DNA from: an uncultured Candidatus Saccharibacteria bacterium
GTDB taxonomy: Bacteria > Patescibacteriota > Minisyncoccia > Phycocordibacterales > DATGWK01
Assembly (NCBI GenBank): GCA_964428845.1
Contig: CAYRZH010000003.1
Location: 25,884 to 89,883, forward strand
Reading direction: 5' to 3'
DNA length: 64,000 bases
The notes under the pieces are model-generated. The model saw only the letters and a list, made by a program, of their open reading frames with translations. It was not told where the DNA came from and ran no database searches. Shown piece by piece: positions 3,896 to 55,943 of the stretch. The translations under genes and the position numbers were made by a program. Numbering within the stretch: position 1 is the stretch's first letter; every line of letters begins with the position of its first letter.

Positions 3896-6800
3896 TCTCC
3901 CTTAGACGACAAAATTCACAAGAGGAGTCATCACATTTTTTATTCCAAAACTTTAGGTCAAAAATTTCTGCAGCGATAGAAGAAATTTCCTTTCTCAAGG
4001 CATCTGCATCCTCTACCGTAATTTCAAACAATTCCTTTCTATATTTACCAGATTTGTCGGGCTCAACAAAGTCCACAACTCCCTTCCCTACCTTAAGTTG
4101 GCCACTGTCAAATTCGTCCAAAAGAATTTTGTAGAAAACGAGCTGTCTTTTGTAATTACCATCAGAGCTCTTGGTACCACCCTCTATCTCCCTTCTGCTT
4201 TTTGGATTTCCAGTCTTGTAGTCCACAACTGTGACAGAGTCCCCCAAGTCCGGTTCGATCTTATCGATTTTTCCTTTTAGGAGCAGACTCTCTTTACTTC
4301 CCGCCTGACTCGTAAACGGCAAGAAGGTTCCTACTACGTTTAGCTCATTTACAATTGGCTTCGGCCAAGTATTTTTATATGCCTCGAAATATCCCGATAG
4401 AGATTTTGTTCCTTTCTCGAGAAATAACTTGAAATCGTCTTCAGAAAGAGCTTTTTTGTTAAGAAAATTTTCAAAAAGTGAGAGGAAATTTTTCTTGGAC
4501 ATTAGCCTGCCGTTCCGATATTCATCAAAGAAAACCTTGAGAGTTTCATGAATGGCCGTGCCGTAAAGCTGATATCTTTCTTCGGCCTTCGGTACCCTGA
4601 TAAGATTCAAAAAGAAAAATTTCCAAGGGCAATCTATATAATTATTGAGAGCGCTTACCGATATGCCTTCTTCAAGAAAAACCTTTCTCAAATAATTCTT
4701 GTCCCTGATCGATGGAGTAACCTTAGGGCGACGATCAGAGGTTACCCGCCCCGCTTTTCCAATAGGAACTTTGATATCTATTTTTTTAATCTTACTTGGA
4801 TCAATTTCTTCCAAGAATTGACTAGGTAAAAGTTCCTTTTGAGAATTATCCTTTTTTGAATATGAAAGAGTCACCTCCTTACGGGCTCGGGTTAAGGCAA
4901 CATAGAGCAGGCGTCTCTCGTCTTCCACTCCACCGTCATCTACTTCACTTAGACTGCTTAGAGGCAGGAAATAACTGGGCATCCTCCTATTCCCCCAATG
5001 CCCATCGTTCATACCAACACAAAAAACATAATCAAACTCCAAACCCTTGGATTTATGCGCCGTCATAAGATTTACTTTTCCCGGTGCAACAGAAAAACCT
5101 TGAGTGCGGATTGAGACATCGTGCCTCGATAGAGTATTCAAAAAAATAATGTAGTCCTTGAGAGTGTAATATTTATGACGCTCAAGAAGACCTACCGCCT
5201 GACTTAGCAAGGTATTTAGAAGTGAAAGTTTCTCGGTTCCGCTTTCTCCAAGCATCAAGTAAGAGATGAAACCCATATTGTGCATAACAGCTTCAAGCGT
5301 CTCCGAAAGATTTTTCTTCTTCGCCGCGAGGCTTAGCTTGTGCAACTTCGAATAAAGATCACTGAATTTATTTACATCTTTTATACCAGCCGCCTTAAGG
5401 TCAGATGGCTTTCTTAAAGAATCGTAGATGGATATTTTGTTTTTTCTCGAAGCCCTGACCAGTTTGAAAACATCCAGATGATCCAGGCCTAAAAAATCGA
5501 AGAAAAGCACTGGAACAATAAGTTCGTCATTTCCAAAATCATTTATAGCATAAAGCACGGCGATAAAGGCTCTTATGTCTTCGTCAGCAAAAAGATCTGT
5601 CTCGGAATGTATTACGTAAGGTACCCCAGCTGACTCGAATACTTGTCTAAGAGGCAGAGCATCTTTATTGTCTCTGTATAAAACTGCAATGGAAGGCGCA
5701 TCTACCCCACCAGCGATCTTCATCTTGATTTTGGAGACAACCCACTCGTACTCAAGCCTTTGACTTGGAAGTTCTGCAAGGAAAATCGATGGCCCTGCGG
5801 TGGATCGTGATGAGACCAGCCGTGGTCGCATATCGTCTAGGGCCAGAATATTTTTTGAAATCAGACTATGGGAAGCATCGAGAATGGCTTGTGGTGATCG
5901 GTAATTTTTCTTTAGAGTAATAAGTTTTGCCTCCTTGAATCTCTTTTTAAAATAAAGAAAGTTTTCGAGTGAAGCGCCTTGGAAACGGAAAATAGCCTGC
6001 TTCTCGTCCCCGACGATGAATAGATTGGGGTTCTTGTGGAAGCCAGAAAGCAGTTCTAGAAGCTTATTTTGGGCGTTATTTGCGTCCTGGTGCTCGTCGG
6101 CCAGGATGTATTGGTAATTTTCTTGGAGTTCAAGGAGAAGGTTCTTATTTGCTCTCAATTCTTTCAGAACTTCTATAATCATATCCTCATAGTCATAGAG
6201 TCTCTTTTTATCAAGCGACTCCTGATATTTTTCGTAAACTAAAAAAAGTTCCTCGCTATTTTGGATTCTTCTTTCTGTTGGCTTCCACTTTGCTTTCATC
6301 TCACCCTTATAGGCTCCACTTTGATGATACAGGTCTTCGTTTGACTCGAAACGCTTCCTCTCGTCTGCCAGTATTTTTTTAAAATTTTTTGGGTCGATAT
6401 CGTCTCGCTTCAGTTCCTTTATTTGAGAAATTATTGATTTTAAATAGAAAAAAGGATTACCATAAGGTTTAAGATTTTTGAGTTTGGTCTTGGAAATTAT
6501 TTCTTCGAGAATTTTTATCTGATCAAGGTCACTCATGTTTTGAGCGCCAATGATTCGAGGAAATTCTTGAGGATAGCGTTTTATTATCTCATTACAGAAG
6601 CTATGGAATGTGTGAATGTTGGCTCTATAGCCTGTTGGGCCAACGATCTCCACGAGCTTTTTTCTTATGGAGTGAACCCCCGATTCGGTAAAAGTGAGCG
6701 CAAGAATACTTGAGACCGATGCATCTGTTTTTCGTAAGATATTTGCGATCCGCAGAGTAAGAATGGAGGTCTTCCCCGTACCTGGGCCAGCGATGACCAT

Positions 6801-18560: not shown

Positions 18561-18582
18561 TGGCGTATCTTAACAGATGATT

Positions 18583-18611
18583 GCTGGGGGGTCAATTAGG
18601 AGAGCAGGGGG
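18583..18611 (-). promoter_or_regulatory. Sigma-70-like promoter for rpsP (TTGACC-N17-TAAGAT on the minus strand)
   Basis: Reverse complement reads ttgacc ccccagcaatcatctgt taagat, ending about 15 nt before the rpsP ATG. Confidence 0.5.
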
Positions 18612-18623
18612 TCTGCTCTCACG

Positions 18624-18734
18624 GGGTCTTGAATAGATGCCTCGTCGAGCACGGATAAATTTTTGCTAAAATTTTCCTCGAGCTCGCGCCGTCGCGCTCG
18701 CTAGTCTCGCCTCGGCATCTATTCAAGACCCCCT
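18624..18734. repeat. Hairpin element copy 1: a roughly 110-nt element with 21-nt terminal inverted arms (gggtcttgaatagatgcctcg ... cgaggcatctattcaagaccc) and a conserved GC-rich core
   Basis: Aligns end to end with copies at 26265-26373 and 54584-54690. The arms are reverse complements of each other. Confidence 0.8.
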
Positions 18735-18883
18735 ATGTATAAATCTTCTTGCGGACTCCCCTCGAGTGATCTCTGTGGCGGACAGGCAGGCCGGTAAGGC
18801 AGAGTATTCAAGTATTCAAAATCCATTGGGCAAACCTCGACAAGATGGGCTCCAAAAAAACATCTTGGACAATTGCAGAAACG

Positions 18884-18912
18884 AAAAACCCCCCAGAAAA
18901 ACCTGGGGGGCT
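18884..18912 (-). terminator. Rho-independent terminator downstream of the island-1 gene
   Basis: Minus strand: ccccccagg ttttt ctgggggg followed by TTTTT. Confidence 0.7.
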
Positions 18913-18941: not shown

Positions 18942-19649
18942 CTAGGTGGCTTGAGGGACGGCAACTGGTGTATGAGAACCGACTTGCGACACAGCGAACG
19001 CGAACCCGCGGTCACGAAGCCTCCCGCCGCCAGGCCTGCCGCTGCACGCGTTGAGCCAGCGACCACCGCCGACACGGTCCGCGCAGAGCAAGCGCGGATC
19101 GCCGACGGAGTCGTTGATGGGTTCGTGCATGGCAACGATGTACCACAGACCCATCGCTTCGATCTCCTTGTCCGTGAACTTCTCACGGATGAGGCAGGCC
19201 AGTTCGGCGTTCGGCTTCGAGAGCTTGCGTCTGTCGGCCTCGGCGCGGATCTTCTTCGTGGTCCGGTCGTTGTCCTCGAAGAGCATGCCCTTGAGAACGG
19301 CGACTTCGGTCGTCACGCCGCTCGTCGGCTTGAAGTCAGGGCTTCGGAGCACCTGCTTGGCGTAGTCACCCACACGGAGGCCTCTGCTTTTGAGTCGAGT
19401 GATCCAGGCTTTACCGGTCGTGCCGTCGCTCGTAACCCAGAAGTAGATGACGCCGCCTTCCTCGTGCCAACGCTTGGGGGGGTTGGAGAGCGGGAACGGA
19501 CCACGAATCGCGTCGGCAATTCTCACCTGCTCTACCACAGATGCGCCTCGAAATCTCTGCAGATCCGCTCGAGTGACACCCCTGACATCCAAGATCTCCA
19601 ATGTGGCCATGGCTTCCGAAATAGGTATTTCACTGACAAGGCTCCCCAT
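18942..19649 (-). CDS. High-GC island gene 1: hypothetical protein of an unrecognised family (paralog of 50662-51318 and 26555-27223)
   Basis: About 63% GC against an approximately 40% host. Strong SD (GGAAGGAGAcccaaATG). Shares a 331-bp identical block with 50803-51133. C-terminal motif AMHEPINDS...GGGRWL..C.GRP shared with the two other island genes. Confidence 0.7.
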   Translation of the reverse strand: MGSLVSEIPISEAMATLEILDVRGVTRADLQRFRGASVVEQVRIADAIRGPFPLSNPPKRWHEEGGVIYFWVTSDGTTGKAWITRLKSRGLRVGDYAKQVLRSPDFKPTSGVTTEVAVLKGMLFEDNDRTTKKIRAEADRRKLSKPNAELACLIREKFTDKEIEAMGLWYIVAMHEPINDSVGDPRLLCADRVGGGRWLNACSGRPGGGRLRDRGFAFAVSQVGSHTPVAVPQAT

Positions 19650-21814: not shown

Positions 21815-21998
21815 TGAATTCCAGTGGAAATATCGCCACGAGAGGGTGCACAGGCCGGTTTGCATGGTTTTGTCAAATTTGGTCAGTCACTCAGGTAAGT
21901 ATCTGACAAATTTGACAAAAAACTGGCCGAGCACTAGTGAGCAGCCTCGCTGGAGGCTGCGAACGCCCTCGAGGGGCAATATTTCCACTGGAATTCAC

Positions 21999-25043: not shown

Positions 25044-25985
25044 TTATTTCTTAAGCAAGATATTGATAGCTTTTGTAACAATAGGAAGGATATCGTTGTA
25101 GAAGTTCAGATCAAGGATATCAGCCAATTTGAACCATTTGGCGTCATCGAGACCGCCGTTTCCCTCTTCGAGCTTCAGATCTTTAAACTTCGCTTCGGCA
25201 AGAAAATATACAACCTGTTTTTTCTTTTTGCCATTTTCGGGATGATAGGCAATGTATTCGTTTTCGCCCAGTTTCTCCTTGGGGACTACATCTACGCCTA
25301 TCTCTTCTTTGGCTTTTCTTACAATACCATCAGCATACTCTTCTTCTGGGCCAATTTTCCCTTTGGTAAGGGTCCAGTGGCCGAAGACATCGTGGACAAG
25401 TGCAAGATAGATATCTCCCTTGTGGTGGGAGTAAACTACGGCACCACAGAGTTTTTCTACCGGGATCTTGTCTGCGGGGATATCTTTATTTGGCTTTTTT
25501 TTTGAGGTTTCGTTTTTGCCCGGCTCCCCCATTTCTTTGTACACCGCCCCCAAAACCCCGTTTACAAATTTGCTGCTAGTGTCACCGCCAAATGTTTTGG
25601 CTAGTTCGATAGCTTCGTTGATGGCGACTTTTGGTGGTACCTCGTCTCGATTGCCAAAGATGAGCTCGTAGAGGCCAATTCTTAAAATGTTTCTATCGAC
25701 GACAGATATTTTCTCAAGTGGCCAGTCTGGTGCTGCCTTTACGATTATGTTATCGAGATCTTTTTCTTTCTTGAGCACATTTTTCATAAGTGACTCCATA
25801 AACGAAAAATCTCCTATACCAGGAGCAAATTCTTCTGCATTTCTACGGAAAATTTCCATGGCCTCCTTCTCACTCTTTTTTCCAAAGTCTACTTCAAAGA
25901 GTGACTGCACGACTATTGATCTCGATAGGTGTCTGTTTGCCATATTCTCTATTTGCAAGAACTGTTCACCTTTACTATAACCCAA
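25044..25985 (-). CDS. nusB: Fusion protein: NusB antitermination factor (N-terminal) plus NUDIX hydrolase (C-terminal)
   Basis: N-terminal half resembles NusB (LFEVDF..., VDRNILRIGLYELIF). C-terminal half carries a Nudix box GKIGPEEEYADGIVRKAKEEIGV. Confidence 0.7.
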   Translation of the reverse strand: MGYSKGEQFLQIENMANRHLSRSIVVQSLFEVDFGKKSEKEAMEIFRRNAEEFAPGIGDFSFMESLMKNVLKKEKDLDNIIVKAAPDWPLEKISVVDRNILRIGLYELIFGNRDEVPPKVAINEAIELAKTFGGDTSSKFVNGVLGAVYKEMGEPGKNETSKKKPNKDIPADKIPVEKLCGAVVYSHHKGDIYLALVHDVFGHWTLTKGKIGPEEEYADGIVRKAKEEIGVDVVPKEKLGENEYIAYHPENGKKKKQVVYFLAEAKFKDLKLEEGNGGLDDAKWFKLADILDLNFYNDILPIVTKAINILLKK

Positions 25986-26227: not shown

Positions 26228-26258
26228 GTATTATACATGGCAGTGGCGGGAAATCAAT
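26228..26258 (-). promoter_or_regulatory. Sigma-70-like promoter for rpmF (TTGATT-N16-TATAAT)
   Basis: Reverse complement reads ttgatt tcccgccactgccatg tataat acccaccc ATG. Confidence 0.5.
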
Positions 26259-26264
26259 AGAGGT

Positions 26265-26373
26265 GGGTTTTGAATAGCATACCTCGTCGAGCACGGATAA
26301 ATTTCTGCTGAAATTTTCCTCGAGCTCGCGCCGTCGCGCTCGCTAGTCTCGCCTCGGCATCTATTCAAAACCC
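26265..26373. repeat. Hairpin element copy 2
   Basis: Full-length alignment to copy 1. The core ctcgtcgagcacggataaattt.tgct.aaattttcctcgagctcgcgccgtcgcgctcgctagtctcgcctcgg is identical except for 2 nt. Lies immediately upstream of the rpmF promoter. Confidence 0.8.
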
Positions 26374-26483
26374 TGATAGATACGCAAATCTTCCTGCGCA
26401 GTCTCCTCGTGCAATCTCCAAGCCAGACACCAGACGCCATCTCGCTCCGGAACCTATTAAAGATCGCAAAGATTGACTTACCT

Positions 26484-26554: not shown

Positions 26555-27223
26555 CTACTTACGACGGACAAACACCAAGCGGTGGCCAGGACCCCAGACG
26601 CTGAGAGGGCGGCCGTCGCAAGTACGGAGCCACCGCCCACCACAGACGTCGCATCCGACAGAGAACACGTCGAGGTCGCTGTACGAGTCCCAAATGGGAT
26701 GCATCGCGATAGCGACACACTCGTCGTTGGGTTGGTCGATGTACTGCAAGCGCAGTTGCGGACCGGCTTCTGCTGGACAGAGACCAAGTCCGAGCTTGTC
26801 GGCCTCGGCACAGATGTTATAGAAGGCCGTACTGTGCTTGAAGCCGAGTTCAGCTACTGTAACAAGCACGAGGTCGAGTTCTATCGGCTCCTTGCTCACG
26901 ATAAACTCGGGCTTGTCGAGGATGTCGCCCGCCGCCAGGTCGTCGATTTTCATTTTCGCGGACTTGATGGCCCTTCGGAAACCCGCGCCATCCTTGATGC
27001 CGGTGCCGAGCTTGATGGTTTTCCATGTCGACCAGGCCCTAATAGGCTCGGCTCTTGCCCTGCCACCATTGCGGAGAAACTCCGTGAACCGAACCCCCGC
27101 ATTGTGCGGACTGTCGATCAGTGCCTGGACGCCACTTGGGCTAAGCACTTCCCAGTTGGTGTTTGCCCCCAACTTGGCAAGCAACTCGAATCTCTGCTCG
27201 ACGCAGATTGTCTTGGCAGCCAT
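26555..27223 (-). CDS. High-GC island gene 2: hypothetical protein, a divergent paralog of island genes 1 and 3
   Basis: High GC. SD AAAGGAGGtagccaATG. Shared blocks with the island-1/3 proteins: GTGIKDGAG vs DGTTGKAW, ICAEADKLGL vs IRAEADRRKL, AIAMHPIWDS vs IVAMHEPINDS, CGGRWLRTCDGRP vs GGGRWLNACSGRP. Confidence 0.6.
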   Translation of the reverse strand: MAAKTICVEQRFELLAKLGANTNWEVLSPSGVQALIDSPHNAGVRFTEFLRNGGRARAEPIRAWSTWKTIKLGTGIKDGAGFRRAIKSAKMKIDDLAAGDILDKPEFIVSKEPIELDLVLVTVAELGFKHSTAFYNICAEADKLGLGLCPAEAGPQLRLQYIDQPNDECVAIAMHPIWDSYSDLDVFSVGCDVCGGRWLRTCDGRPLSVWGPGHRLVFVRRK

Positions 27224-50454: not shown

Positions 50455-50492
50455 AAAAGAAAAAAGCCCCGCAACCACGCGAGGCCTCCATG
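50455..50492 (-). terminator. Repeat A: terminator-like 38-mer (aaaagaaaaaagccccgcaaccacgcgaggcctccatg), repeated at 51897-51935
   Basis: Minus-strand reading gives an imperfect GC stem followed by T6. A second, 37-bp copy lies at 51897-51935, with a 1-nt indel and a few substitutions. Confidence 0.5.
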
Positions 50493-50661: not shown

Positions 50662-51318
50662 TTAGGATTGAGAACCAACTTGCGGGACAACGAACGCGAA
50701 CCCCCCACCACCATCCCACCTGCGGTCAGGCCCGCCGCCGCGCGCGCGGAGCCAGTCACCACCGTCGCACCGGTCCACGGAGAGCAAGCCCGGAACACCA
50801 CAGGAGTCGTTGATGGGTTCGTGCATGGCAACGATGTACCACAGACCCATCGCTTCGATCTCCTTGTCCGTGAACTTCTCACGGATGAGGCAGGCCAGTT
50901 CGGCGTTCGGCTTCGAGAGCTTGCGTCTGTCGGCCTCGGCGCGGATCTTCTTCGTGGTCCGGTCGTTGTCCTCGAAGAGCATGCCCTTGAGAACGGCGAC
51001 TTCGGTCGTCACGCCGCTCGTCGGCTTGAAGTCAGGGCTTCGGAGCACCTGCTTGGCGTAGTCACCCACACGGAGGCCTCTGCTTTTGAGTCGAGTGATC
51101 CAGGCTTTACCGGTCGTGCCGTCGCTCGTAACCGAGAAGTAGATGACGCCGCCTTCTTCGCGCCACGAACGGGTCGGCTTTGAAACAACCCATTCACCCG
51201 AATTGACGAGTCTGATCGCTTCATTCGGGTCGGTCGAGCCGGTCTGACGCATGATGTTCTTCACCAGTGCGTTCAGCTTGCCGGGTAGCACGTCTGCGAT
51301 TGCGAATTTTGTGCTCAT
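50662..51318 (-). CDS. High-GC island gene 3: hypothetical protein, a close paralog of island gene 1
   Basis: The 331-bp block 50803-51133 is identical to 19108-19438 by manual comparison. SD AAGGAGatacaatcATG. The protein shares EEGGVIYF...GLWYIVAMHEPINDS with island gene 1. Confidence 0.7.
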   Translation of the reverse strand: MSTKFAIADVLPGKLNALVKNIMRQTGSTDPNEAIRLVNSGEWVVSKPTRSWREEGGVIYFSVTSDGTTGKAWITRLKSRGLRVGDYAKQVLRSPDFKPTSGVTTEVAVLKGMLFEDNDRTTKKIRAEADRRKLSKPNAELACLIREKFTDKEIEAMGLWYIVAMHEPINDSCGVPGLLSVDRCDGGDWLRARGGGPDRRWDGGGGFAFVVPQVGSQS

Positions 51319-51470
51319 GATTGTATCTCCTTGGGCTAATTTGCCCGTTTCGTTTTCCTCTAATCCGAGGAGGAACCATGGCCTATGTGGTCATAGCGAG
51401 GAATGGCCTAGTTTTAAGCCACTTTTCGCTATGACCACTTACAAGTAGTTCAATGTTCAGTCTGCGGCTC

Positions 51471-51808: not shown

Positions 51809-51838
51809 TGGTATATTTAAGTCAATACTGCCTTACTT

Positions 51839-51881
51839 CCTCCCCACCACCTTCAAAACAGCTTTCTTTATAACTTCTACT
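51839..51881. repeat. Repeat B: a 43-bp duplicate of the 3' coding end of the transketolase C-subunit gene (true copy at 53603-53645)
   Basis: tccccaccaccttcaaaacagct(t/c)tctttata(a/g)cttctactc. The minus-strand translation ...VEVIKKAVLKVVGRK* mirrors the tkt C-terminus ...VEAIKRAVLKVVGRK*. Confidence 0.8.
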
Positions 51882-51936
51882 CTCTCGAAAAAAATTGAAA
51901 AGAAAAAGCCCCGCACCGCGCGAGGCCTCCATGCTA

Positions 51937-53595: not shown

Positions 53596-54573
53596 CTATT
53601 TTCTCCCCACCACCTTCAAAACAGCTCTCTTTATAGCTTCTACTCCCATGCCGTAATGCTCGATGAGCTCGTCTGGCTTGCCTGATTGACCAAACTCGTC
53701 TTTTACGCCGAGAAATTCTATTGGTACTGGAAAATTTGAGGCTAGGCATTCTGCAACGGCGCTACCCATTCCACCCGCGATCTGATGTTCCTCTAGGGTC
53801 ACTATTGCGCCAGTTTCTTTGGCCGCATCTACAATAGCTTTCTCGTCGAGCGGTTTTATGGTTGCCAGATTTATAACATTCACATTTGTGCCAGCGGTTT
53901 CAAGATCGTGCGCCGCCTGCATGGCTCGGTAGACAAGCGCGCCGGTTGCGATGATTGTGGCGACCGGCGTATTCTTCGGTTCAAAAAATGTTGCCGCCTT
54001 CCCTATTTCAAAAGGAGTATCTTCGGTTGTGATAACTGGAGTCTTTTCTCGTCCAAGACGAATGTAAACCGGAGTATCTGTCTTTGCGGCCGCGATCGTA
54101 GCTTTGCGCGCTTCGATGGCGTCGCAGGGTGAGATCACCACCATACGCGGGATGACTCGCATGATAGCAATGTCCTCGATCGCTTGATGTGTGCCGCCGT
54201 CGGGCCCTACAGAAATACCCGCATGCGACCCGATGATCTTCACAGGACGATCGTTGTAGCAAATAGTGGTCCGGATTTGTTCCCAGTTTCTTCCTGGAGA
54301 AAACATAGCGTAAGAAGTAATGAAAGGAATTTTGCCCATGGCCGCCATACCGGAGCCAACTCCAGCAAGATTTTGCTCGGCAACTCCGATCTGCACAAAT
54401 CTTTCCGGAAATTTTTTGGCAAAAAGGTGGGCTTGGGCAGACTCTGTAAGGTCGGCACAGAGAGCTACCACTCGCGAGTCGGCTTCACCAGCAGCTAAAA
54501 GCCCTTCGCCATATCCTTTTCGGATCGGCACCTGCTCGATGTCAGCGGAAAAAAGTTTGGGGTTCAGGTTCAT
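53596..54573 (-). CDS. tkt: Transketolase C-terminal section (pyrimidine-binding and C-terminal domains) of a split transketolase
   Basis: 325 aa matching the transketolase C-half (GVAEQNLAGVGSGMAAMG, GPDGGTHQAIEDIAIMR). Confidence 0.85.
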   Translation of the reverse strand: MNLNPKLFSADIEQVPIRKGYGEGLLAAGEADSRVVALCADLTESAQAHLFAKKFPERFVQIGVAEQNLAGVGSGMAAMGKIPFITSYAMFSPGRNWEQIRTTICYNDRPVKIIGSHAGISVGPDGGTHQAIEDIAIMRVIPRMVVISPCDAIEARKATIAAAKTDTPVYIRLGREKTPVITTEDTPFEIGKAATFFEPKNTPVATIIATGALVYRAMQAAHDLETAGTNVNVINLATIKPLDEKAIVDAAKETGAIVTLEEHQIAGGMGSAVAECLASNFPVPIEFLGVKDEFGQSGKPDELIEHYGMGVEAIKRAVLKVVGRK

Positions 54574-54583
54574 TATGGATATG

Positions 54584-54690
54584 GAGTTTAAATAAATACC
54601 TCGTCTCGCACGATAAAATTCTCGCTGAAATTTTCCTCGTGCTCGCGCCGTCGCGCTCGCAAGGCTTCACCTCGGTACTTATTTAAACTC
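54584..54690. repeat. Hairpin element copy 3
   Basis: Arms ggagtttaaataaatacctcg / cgaggtacttatttaaactcc pair perfectly. They differ from copies 1 and 2 at several positions on both arms simultaneously. Core ...aaattttcctcg.gctcgcgccgtcgcgctcgc is conserved. Lies 11 nt upstream of the tkt C-section ATG. Confidence 0.75.
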
Positions 54691-54715
54691 CAGTTATTTC
54701 TTTTAATAGATTTAT

Positions 54716-55066
54716 TCATTTTCGTTTCCTAGCCCAGCCCCAGATCGAGCCGAGGATTGCACCTATTAAAAAAACAATGATTAGAGAAACAGCTTCTGCA
54801 GCAATAATACCAATTACATAATCATTGAGTGAAACCCCTGGCATCCCCCCGCCTGGAATATGAGAATAAACAAAGTCGCTGTCAAGAAGTACTAGCGAAG
54901 GAAAAACCAAAAAACCAAAAATTAGGATCCAAAAAAAACTAATATCAAAACCGACACTTTGTCGCACCTTTACAGCAAGAAAGATTACCGAAATTAAGTG
55001 AACAAGCGAGAGGATTAACCCGCCCTTGACCCAATAAGGTAAAATTTTCCAGCTTACTTTATTCAT
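54716..55066 (-). CDS. Small hypothetical membrane protein (116 aa, 3-4 TM) inserted between the two transketolase halves
   Basis: Hydrophobic segments throughout. No recognised family. Confidence 0.4.
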   Translation of the reverse strand: MNKVSWKILPYWVKGGLILSLVHLISVIFLAVKVRQSVGFDISFFWILIFGFLVFPSLVLLDSDFVYSHIPGGGMPGVSLNDYVIGIIAAEAVSLIIVFLIGAILGSIWGWARKRK

Positions 55067-55079
55067 CTATGTTTGCATA

Positions 55080-55943
55080 TTATTTATTTTTAATGCTCAT
55101 CTCAACCTCCCGCAGTGCCGCGAGTGCCATCGCTGCCTCTTCTTTGTTTGGCGGCTTGCCATGCCATTCAAACTTGCGCTCGAACGCAGGCACACCCTTG
55201 CCTGGAATATTGTGAGAAATAATCACCGACGGTTTTTCAAAAATCGCTTTTGCCTGGCCCACCGCGTCTACAATTTCTTCAAAATTGTGCCCATTGATTT
55301 CCTGCACGTGCCAGTTCCACGCTTCCCATTTGGCTCGAAGCGGCTCGAGCGGCATGATGTCCTCGGTGAAGCCGTCTATTTGGATGTTGTTGCGATCGAT
55401 GATGGCGATGACATTTCGCAGCTTATTTTTCCCCGCAAGCATAGCGGCCTCCCAAGTCATACCGGAGTCGAGCTCACCGTCGCTCAAAAGTGCGTAAATA
55501 TATCGCTCGCTTGAAATGCCCTTATCTATCCTATCTGCCAGAGCCATACCCACTGCCTGTGAAAGACCACAGCCAAGCGGGCCGGAGCTAGTCTCAACCA
55601 TCGGCAAGAACTCGCGATGAGGATGACCCTGCAAGCGCGAGCCAAATTTTCTTAAAGTTTTGAGTTCTTTCAGGGGAAAATATCCGGCATATGCCATCGT
55701 GGTATAAAGGACTGGGCAAATGTGGCCGTTTGAAAGCACCAGACGGTCGCGCTCTGGCCAGTCTGGTTTTTTAGGGTCATGTTTTAAAAGGTGAAAATAG
55801 AGCGCAGTAAAAATGTCGGCCATACCGAGTGGCCCGGCGGTGTGTCCAGACCCAGCCTCAAGTAGCGTCTCAATGATCGTCTGTCTGATCTTGTTCGCCT
55901 GAAGCTCAAGCTCCTTTATTTTTTTATCTGTGAGTTCGGTCAT
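55080..55943 (-). CDS. tkt: Transketolase N-terminal section (TPP-binding domain)
   Basis: GHTAGPLGMADIF and GDGELDSGMTWEAAM (TPP-binding GDG motif). 287 aa. Confidence 0.85.
   Translation of the reverse strand: MTELTDKKIKELELQANKIRQTIIETLLEAGSGHTAGPLGMADIFTALYFHLLKHDPKKPDWPERDRLVLSNGHICPVLYTTMAYAGYFPLKELKTLRKFGSRLQGHPHREFLPMVETSSGPLGCGLSQAVGMALADRIDKGISSERYIYALLSDGELDSGMTWEAAMLAGKNKLRNVIAIIDRNNIQIDGFTEDIMPLEPLRAKWEAWNWHVQEINGHNFEEIVDAVGQAKAIFEKPSVIISHNIPGKGVPAFERKFEWHGKPPNKEEAAMALAALREVEMSIKNK

Follow-up and report, generated by a model that had tools for sequence, protein, structure and literature searches.

The hairpin element that occurs three times in the 64-kb window (the whole stretch of DNA analysed here) is likely to be a non-autonomous palindromic mobile DNA repeat, a member of a Patescibacteria-wide family that is defined by its structure and not by terminal repeats. 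CPR/Patescibacteria have very small genomes, which are regarded as poor in mobile DNA. An initial annotation of the window had picked out the hairpin from the letters alone; the finding is real, and it is more widespread than that annotation could know. We conclude that a dedicated regulatory RNA is not what the element is, and that its matching arms probably come from hairpin copying at the level of DNA rather than from a regulatory RNA. For the three copies in the window, the best explanation is that they are passengers beside rpsP, rpmF, and a transketolase gene, with any effect on transcription being secondary. The family is apparently undescribed so far: no description of it was found in the literature, Rfam yielded no family at the gathering score, nor any hit over copy 1 at E ≤ 10, and one protein-database query with the element-encoded peptide gave no match.

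Fold and Copies in the Window

The element folds as a three-way junction, in which a long outer stem (P1) closes off two hairpins (P2 and P3), and it has a core of ~65 nt that is conserved in sequence. On the consensus strand, which is the plus strand of the window, the order is the left arm of P1, GCACGGATA, P2, TTCCTCG, P3, AGTCTC, and the right arm of P1, where P2 is an A/T-rich hairpin of 7–10 bp with a TGCT-like loop and P3 has the consensus (A/T)GC-TC-GCGC-CGTC-GCGC-TC-GC(T/A). Three co-oriented copies lie at 18623–18732, 26265–26373, and 54582–54692, essentially where the initial annotation had placed them; a 33-mer core pattern occurs three times in the window against an expectation of zero (none in shuffles), and the folding of all three copies, on either strand, gives z values of −5 to −9 against shuffled controls. 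A covariance model, run with its filters off and with every position scored, found no fourth copy in the 64 kb.

Copy 1 (+, 104.6 bits) is a complete branched hairpin, with the consensus written on the plus strand and the minus strand folding better. The left arm of its P1 (18623–18649, +) carries a TC x TC internal loop (GCC-TC-G) and is followed by P2 (GGATAAATTTTTGCTAAAATTTTCC; 18653–18677, +), by P3 (AGC-TC-GCGC-CGTC-GCGC-TC-GCT; 18681–18702, +), the TC x TC loop of which corresponds to tandem G.A on the minus strand, and by the right arm of P1 (18706–18732, +), which pairs with the left as an inverted arm (27 nt, 89% complementary). Copy 2 (+, 92 bits) has a core 96% identical to that of copy 1, and its left arm is degenerate, with GAATAGCATACC on the left being mismatched to GGCATCTATTC on the right past 13 bp. 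Copy 3 (+, 63.9 bits) is diverged, being 72% identical to copy 1, and has 19-bp arms of other sequence (54582–54600 and 54674–54692; 19 nt, 95% complementary) with one A.C mismatch. The right arm had been described as the exact complement of its own left arm in every copy, and this does not hold for any of the three, since the 21 nt originally delimited in copy 1 include a T x C mismatch in addition to the TC x TC internal loop, copy 2 pairs over 13 bp only, and copy 3 has its A.C mismatch. The repeat unit shared by copies 1 and 2 extends ~40 nt past the hairpin, the flank at 18733–18773 (+) being homologous to that at 26374–26418 (+), for 154 nt at 86% in all. The arms were also considered as guides to other sites, a reading that was rejected, as they have no further match within the window.

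The neighbouring genes rpsP, trmD, rpmF, and the transketolase C-section had been correctly named. As had been proposed, copies 1 and 2 sit beside the promoters of rpsP and rpmF, as judged from sigma-70-like consensus matches: a promoter-like site for rpsP (TTGACC-17-TAAGAT, 18595→18567, minus strand) lies 28 nt from copy 1, and one for rpmF (TTGATT-16-TATAAT, 26257→26230, minus strand) lies 8 nt from copy 2. The −10 box of each of these two sites (18567–18595 and 26230–26257) is separated from the ATG by only 6–8 nt, and thus the rpsP and rpmF mRNAs may be leaderless; a relative (locus L062) has the same layout. Immediately 3' of rpmF lies a gene for an apparent NusB–NUDIX fusion protein (25044–25985, minus strand). 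The transketolase C-section gene (53596–54573, minus strand) has its ATG ~10 nt from the end of copy 3, in agreement with the position reported for that copy close upstream of the start, and there is no high-GC island there. The transketolase is split (53596–55943, minus strand) into this C-section and an N-section at 55080–55943, between which lie a hydrophobic ORF of 116 residues (54716–55066) and copy 3.

The window holds further repeats. A second, unrelated branched palindrome at 21815–21997 (32-nt arms, two inner hairpins, predicted −100.6 kcal/mol, z = −11.5) has the same architecture as the element and occupies precisely the space between the stop codons of the convergent RNase R and SMC genes. 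Short dispersed repeats occur at 51834–51882 and 53597–53645 (49 nt at 92%) and at 50457–50492 and 51898–51933 (36 nt at 78%), the latter pair resembling related terminator-plus-start regions.

Distribution of the Family

The suggestion that further copies be sought beyond the three proved fruitful outside the window: the exact 27-mer core was found at 61 loci in ~41 species-representative assemblies, all of them titled Patescibacteria/CPR, with carriers including Paceibacterota, Parcubacteria, Taylor-, Nomura-, Vogel-, and Giovannonibacteria, and MAGs labelled Saccharibacteria. Within 409 kb of sequence around these loci, the covariance model found 77 copies, at most three per 8 kb, which include diverged subfamilies and head-to-head pairs. 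Members of the family are ~100–150 bp long, and nested insertion occurs, with an extra hairpin-forming insert of ~60–70 nt in the P2 loop at L012:258–417 and L053:5062–5235. The element is small, non-coding, multi-copy, and patchy among relatives, as MITEs are. Among rpsP loci in 351 kb from 76 related metagenomic contigs there is only one strong copy, which lies directly against the rpsP promoter in the orientation opposite to that in the window, and the nearest relative found (S16 80% identical, rpsP–KH–trmD syntenic) has the same promoter with neither element nor island upstream of rpsP. No match to the element was found in the IMG/VR, phage, and plasmid collections.

Genomic Context and the Terminator Question

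The copies occur in both orientations relative to genes, and their surroundings are varied. Apart from those inside genes, copies lie in intergenic DNA, typically right behind a stop codon. About 19 of 64 abut the stop codon of a co-directional gene, and for 17 of 18 such copies the stem overlaps the stop codon or begins no more than 10 nt from it; the genes upstream are varied housekeeping genes with natural C-termini (S7, Ndk, UppS, RpoD, GyrB, AtpG, UvrC, S1, L31). Roughly 15% of copies lie in frame inside housekeeping genes. Long ORFs span ~10 copies, in either orientation, and a Pfam analysis of nine of these ORFs located seven of the inserts in relation to known domains, either inside one or between two: TsaD (twice), UvrD_C, Methyltransf_11, and Pur_DNA_glyco (methylpurine glycosylase) are domains that span an insert, and PheT and an AddB-like helicase carry one in a linker. 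Each in-frame copy adds roughly 25–50 residues to an essential protein such as TsaD, and more where two copies stand side by side. We rejected a reading as an intron or ribozyme on these grounds, since the copies stand in coding sequences in both orientations with the frame preserved; in-frame copies in either orientation, like those of the Rickettsia palindromic elements (RPEs) discussed below, argue against any orientation-dependent RNA.

Whether the element might be a host-used terminator, insulator, or mRNA-processing element, with a long hairpin after genes that stops or punctuates transcription or serves as an RNase III site and with mobility being incidental, has to be weighed against this distribution. 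The stop-adjacent copies fit such a role, as do the T-runs that follow some copies (e.g. at L035, L006, and L007), the unrelated branched palindrome that fills the gap between two convergent stops in the window, the RNase III encoded by the genome, and the fact that Correia and ERIC elements act in this way (PMC10969869). However, none of the three window copies has a U-tract or terminator-like site on either strand; ordinary terminators do exist in this genome, a canonical one with an 11-bp stem and a T-run being found at 18887–18912 (minus strand), directly after the first of the high-GC island genes, and copy 1 lies downstream of that terminator and upstream of the rpsP promoter. Moreover, copies occur inside coding sequences in both orientations, and termination needs no sequence-conserved branched core. 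We therefore regard this explanation as improbable; the narrower proposal of a transcriptional insulator likewise finds no support in a high-copy dispersed repeat, one copy of which sits between a terminator and a promoter. Under the mobile-repeat reading, some copies may nonetheless now serve the host as terminators or RNase III sites.

The flanks were also searched for a partner. All-versus-all clustering of the flanking ORFs (409 kb) gave only syntenic housekeeping clusters, with no recurrent partner gene and no transposase; no HUH/Y1 transposase or RAYT was evident in the 8-kb slices, and no parent insertion sequence with the same ends was found in the 409 kb of flanks or in the phage, plasmid, and IMG/VR collections. 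Target-site duplication gave no signal, the longest word shared by the two flanks having a mean of 4.85 against 4.67 ± 0.12 for shuffled pairings, in a comparison in which the stem ends are crudely defined and there is no close filled/empty pair at the DNA level. In a subfamily of 13 copies the left flank carries the motif TAAAGGnC-GYTCG, which could be a target site or an element end; at the stem base, motifs seen by eye are GYTCG ... CTCRC or none. In one genome group (L003, L005, L014, L021, L025, L033, L041, L044, L049, L055, and L058), the element is embedded in a repeat unit of ~300 nt and is flanked by other small repeats, e.g. attgtcatcc...gggaatccatg and gctaaaacattttg...gttcgcccgaacaaatttg, which suggests that several small-repeat families cluster in intergenic DNA.

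Covariation and Strand Asymmetry

What is conserved in the stem is pairing, not sequence, and here the claim of the initial annotation stands. Across 59 copies, 85.4% of cells are paired, compared with 66.2% when partners are shuffled and 35–49% in slid controls, and double changes occur in 30 of 42 pairs. P2 is 99% paired and has six covarying (double-change) pairs family-wide, and the sole variable pair of P3 (56–77) is A-U in 38 copies and U-A in 20. The sequence of P1 is entirely different between copies, with pairing being kept; the arms differ between genomes, and in the ELA554 copies an arm segment is hypervariable even within one genome.

The two strands of the element are not equivalent. 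A 2x2 loop, TC x TC, flanked by G-C pairs, is the dominant tandem mismatch; it recurs in P3 and often again in P1, and on the opposite "GA strand" (the minus strand of the window) it reads CGAG/CGAG, the context in which tandem sheared G.A pairs are favoured. By prediction, it is the GA strand that folds better in 48 of the 59 copies selected by pattern and in 16 of the 17 diverged copies that the model found, although the better folding of a G-rich strand may partly be an effect of composition. Isolated A.C mismatches outnumber G.T ones by 30 to 8; with related arms collapsed, the counts are 16 and 8, which is not significant (p = 0.15), and part of this asymmetry, too, may reflect composition. 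The consensus strand lies on the G-rich strand, as defined by local GC skew, in 51 of 64 copies (p = 2e-6), the correlation with the coding strand being weaker (41 of 64). The C-rich consensus strand is thus found mostly on the G-rich strand, and the better-folding strand, its complement, is usually not on the lagging-strand template.

An orientation that tracks GC skew, together with a core that is identical across many lineages, would also be compatible with a strand-oriented DNA signal read by a conserved host protein, for instance in DNA uptake, in priming or restart, or in organising the chromosome. Most related genomes, however, are without the element, the window copies are mostly in the minority orientation (two of them clearly, the skew at copy 1 being near zero), and the insertions into coding sequences and the nested copies look parasitic, so that we consider such a signal quite unlikely, and more so than a terminator.

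A Recurrently Occupied Site in tsaD

The most informative series of copies is found at one site in tsaD, between the sequences encoding LAEExR and (F/L)SLPRPM, which is empty in seven TsaD orthologues and filled in at least seven others. Two of the filled genes carry two head-to-head copies (L142:2113–2328 and L144:970–1188), which with their arms add ~60–75 residues in frame. Filled and empty states are interleaved on the TsaD tree, with P0121 (filled) and P0122 (empty) being 80% identical and filled P0188/P0189 having a TsaD 80–83% identical to that of empty P0226, and the element subfamilies are discordant with the tree. From this interleaving and discordance it follows that the site has been gained repeatedly, lost repeatedly, or converted by other copies.

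The three-way hairpin is kept inside the tsaD coding sequence, with predicted folding energies of −48 to −104 kcal/mol against −7 for the empty site. Double changes are present in 39 of 42 pairs among nine tsaD-resident copies, in an alignment that was fitted to the model and therefore favours structure. The P2 stem reads AATTTTC/GAAAATT (encoding NFQQKIM) in some copies and ATCCGCC/GGCGGAT (IRQQADM) in another, and pairing has thus been kept at the cost of the peptide sequence. At L141 and L142, the outer left arm consists of the conserved host codons GAA GAA GCC AGA A (EEAR), which recur in the right arm as an exact reverse complement, T TCT GGC TTC TTC. At L140, the host codons are the variant GAA CTC AGG A (ELR), and opposite them stands T TCT GAG TT, an imperfect reverse complement with one G·T wobble; the second copy in L142 shows the same tendency to mirror its host flank. 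Neither reverse complement is present in the empty sites L145 and L146. Since the right arm mirrors host codons in a manner that is absent from empty sites, part of P1 has been made in place by inverted duplication of the flank. The empty site itself contains a weak inverted repeat, CTCGCAGAG ... CTCTTCCGAG.

These observations bear directly on the proposal that the element is a structured regulatory RNA. A functional structured RNA, be it cis-regulatory or a small RNA gene, with its stem kept by selection on RNA pairing, would readily account for the strong covariation in P1, P2, and P3, and the purine-rich unpaired regions with a tandem G.A motif on one strand would suit it as well. Selection on an RNA stem is, however, less well supported once part of the "compensatory" arm variation turns out to be an inverted duplication of host sequence, with the arms being partly copied from host flanks. 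There is, moreover, no fixed gene context, no conserved promoter, and no Rfam match; the copy number is high and patchy; the copies take both orientations relative to transcription while the same strand always tends to fold better; and some lie in frame in essential genes. A dispersed repeat found in ~41 species, in both orientations and in frame within protein domains, yet absent at the rpsP of the relative, does not behave as a regulatory RNA, and the probability that it is one appears to us very small, slightly below even that of a DNA signal.

The High-GC Islands Are Targets of a Retroelement

Copies 1 and 2 had been described as lying between rpsP or rpmF and a high-GC island, and this is correct, the islands being located such that each copy is ~180–210 nt downstream of an island gene. 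There are three such genes, all on the minus strand and encoding paralogous proteins of 218–235 residues with no Pfam match: isl1 (18942–19649), a second (26555–27223), and one in a third island (50662–51318) that has no copy of the element. Two of the island genes are ~99% identical except for a hypervariable stretch comprising the last ~140 nt, the family has >1,800 relatives that are 75–80% identical and spread over many CPR phyla, and a homologue at L138 stands upstream of a template repeat (TR, 5074–5202) and a reverse transcriptase gene (RT, 5700–6653). The hypervariable ends, the size of the family, and the homologue beside TR and RT together identify the islands as targets of a diversity-generating retroelement (DGR), although the window itself contains neither a template repeat nor a reverse transcriptase. 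Upstream of the third target gene, a simple hairpin at 51384–51441 (27-bp arms, 4-nt loop) gives a weak match to the model on both strands (E = 0.006).

We asked whether the element serves the adjacent islands as an accessory or recombination site, a possibility raised at the outset and one to which the placement of copies 1 and 2 on the 3' side of two DGR target genes, with a 40-nt flank in common, and the reverse transcriptase genes in some element-bearing loci lend some colour. A DGR target-recognition hairpin lies within a few to tens of nucleotides of the 3' end of the variable region, at every target; the element, by contrast, is 180–210 nt from the target genes and is absent at the third target and at the L138 and L139 DGR loci. 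No copy accompanies the third island and no island accompanies copy 3, a complete DGR locus gave no match to the model, isl1 has its own terminator between itself and the element, and an island homologue occurs in only one of the 61 element loci, 1.6 kb away. Island adjacency is not a general property of the element, and this reading is largely refuted, its remaining likelihood being minimal. Two candidate associations were rejected in the same context: the island protein as a partner of the element, being a DGR target found near 1 of 61 loci only, and reverse transcriptase, which is equally frequent in element and control loci, with no enrichment in the former.

Comparison with Known Repeats

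The closest counterpart in behaviour is provided by the RPEs, which are palindromic repeats of ~100–150 bp in a reduced genome that lie in frame in unrelated housekeeping genes, are translated as an extra peptide, and have no known transposase (PMC10969869). The element shares with them its size, its dispersal, and its in-frame residence in unrelated housekeeping genes with the frame kept on both sides, as well as the lack of a known transposase. The likeness is one of behaviour, and there are differences: the host phylum is another, only the branched core is conserved in sequence here, the arms are hypervariable and partly host-derived, and there is a strand asymmetry together with a bias relative to the direction of replication.

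Bacterial MITEs and similar repeats (Correia, ERIC, and BOX/RUP/SPRITE) are small hairpin-forming repeats near promoters and gene ends that cluster, nest, and can affect transcripts (PMC10969869). The element resembles them in being small, non-coding, high-copy, and hairpin-forming, in its promoter and gene-end sites, and in its clustering and nesting; it differs in that MITEs have conserved, transposase-bound terminal inverted repeats and target-site duplications, whereas its own ends vary across the family and its flanks gave no sign of a duplication. That it is not a plain MITE with conserved terminal repeats, as had been anticipated, is borne out by arms that differ completely between copies with only pairing kept; the comparison of flank words gave no duplication signal.

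IS200/IS605 and REP/RAYT elements are without terminal repeats and target-site duplications, and their orientation is biased relative to replication. The element shows such a bias, neither conserved terminal repeats nor a duplication signal was found for it, and recognition of a folded single strand is plausible for it as well. Its single large three-way junction nevertheless differs from subterminal hairpins or a 20–40-nt REP, its better-folding strand is mostly on the leading-strand template, the polarity opposite to that of IS200/IS605, and no HUH/Y1 gene was seen in its flanks. Integron attC sites are likewise imperfect palindromes conserved in structure, with strand-specific folding and a position just after the stop of a co-directional gene. 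In attC, however, the R/L boxes at the stem base are conserved and the tip is variable, whereas in the element the tip is conserved and the stem variable; no GTTRRRY core site is apparent by eye, neither an integrase nor a cassette array was seen, and the neighbours are housekeeping genes. Outside bacteria, the Allomyces double-hairpin elements and the GC clusters of yeast mitochondria are mobile, structure-conserved organellar hairpins. The Volvox palindromes (PMC2670323) are of the same kind. All of these invade intergenic and coding DNA and show apparently compensatory changes, as the element does; unlike it, they are organellar, and they are unrelated in sequence.

A Model for Spread and Stem Formation

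We propose that the element would spread as selfish DNA through a folded, strand-specific, single-stranded form, recognised by a putative factor encoded elsewhere; this single-stranded route is a tentative part of the model, to which we give somewhat less than an even chance. Landing would occur in or next to existing hairpins or inverted repeats, such as terminators after stops, the pseudo-hairpin in tsaD, and the P2 loops of other copies. Once a copy is inserted, its outer stem would be built by inverted copying of the local flank, as is seen at tsaD. Replication template switching at quasi-palindromes is a known mutational process, and such switching could extend and repair the arms. With the stem being repaired in this way, the arms would stay complementary even if no RNA function were served. 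As for the polarity relative to GC skew, it could come from the way in which copies insert, or else from the loss of those that have the more stable strand on the lagging-strand template.

Several observations count against a mobile repeat. Movement is inferred rather than observed, as strain-level presence/absence polymorphism was not seen; no transposase, recurrent neighbour gene, or target-site duplication was found; the core is conserved more strongly than is expected of decaying selfish copies; and the better-folding strand has the polarity noted above, opposite to that of IS200/IS605. Persistent pairing in old tsaD copies could also mean that each copy is functional. Even so, a mobile palindromic repeat remains the reading we favour.

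A bolder version of it, which we think unlikely, is that the element represents a class of mobile element new to prokaryotes, the hallmark of which, in place of its ends, would be a folded three-way-junction core that homes to the loops of hairpins or short inverted repeats (terminators, the tsaD LAE...LPR pseudo-hairpin, P2 loops), acquires its arms by inverted duplication of the flank, and moves via a strand-specific single-stranded intermediate with the help of an enzyme that so far has no known link to transposition, perhaps a reverse transcriptase, genes for which are common in these genomes.

Significance

Hairpin arms can "covary" without selection at the level of RNA, which calls for caution in covariation-based RNA discovery. 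If the mobilising activity is found, it could reveal a structure-guided insertion mechanism. For the organisms themselves, the family is a repeat that pervades one major branch of the CPR/Patescibacteria, and the element accounts for some of the unexplained insertions in CPR proteins.
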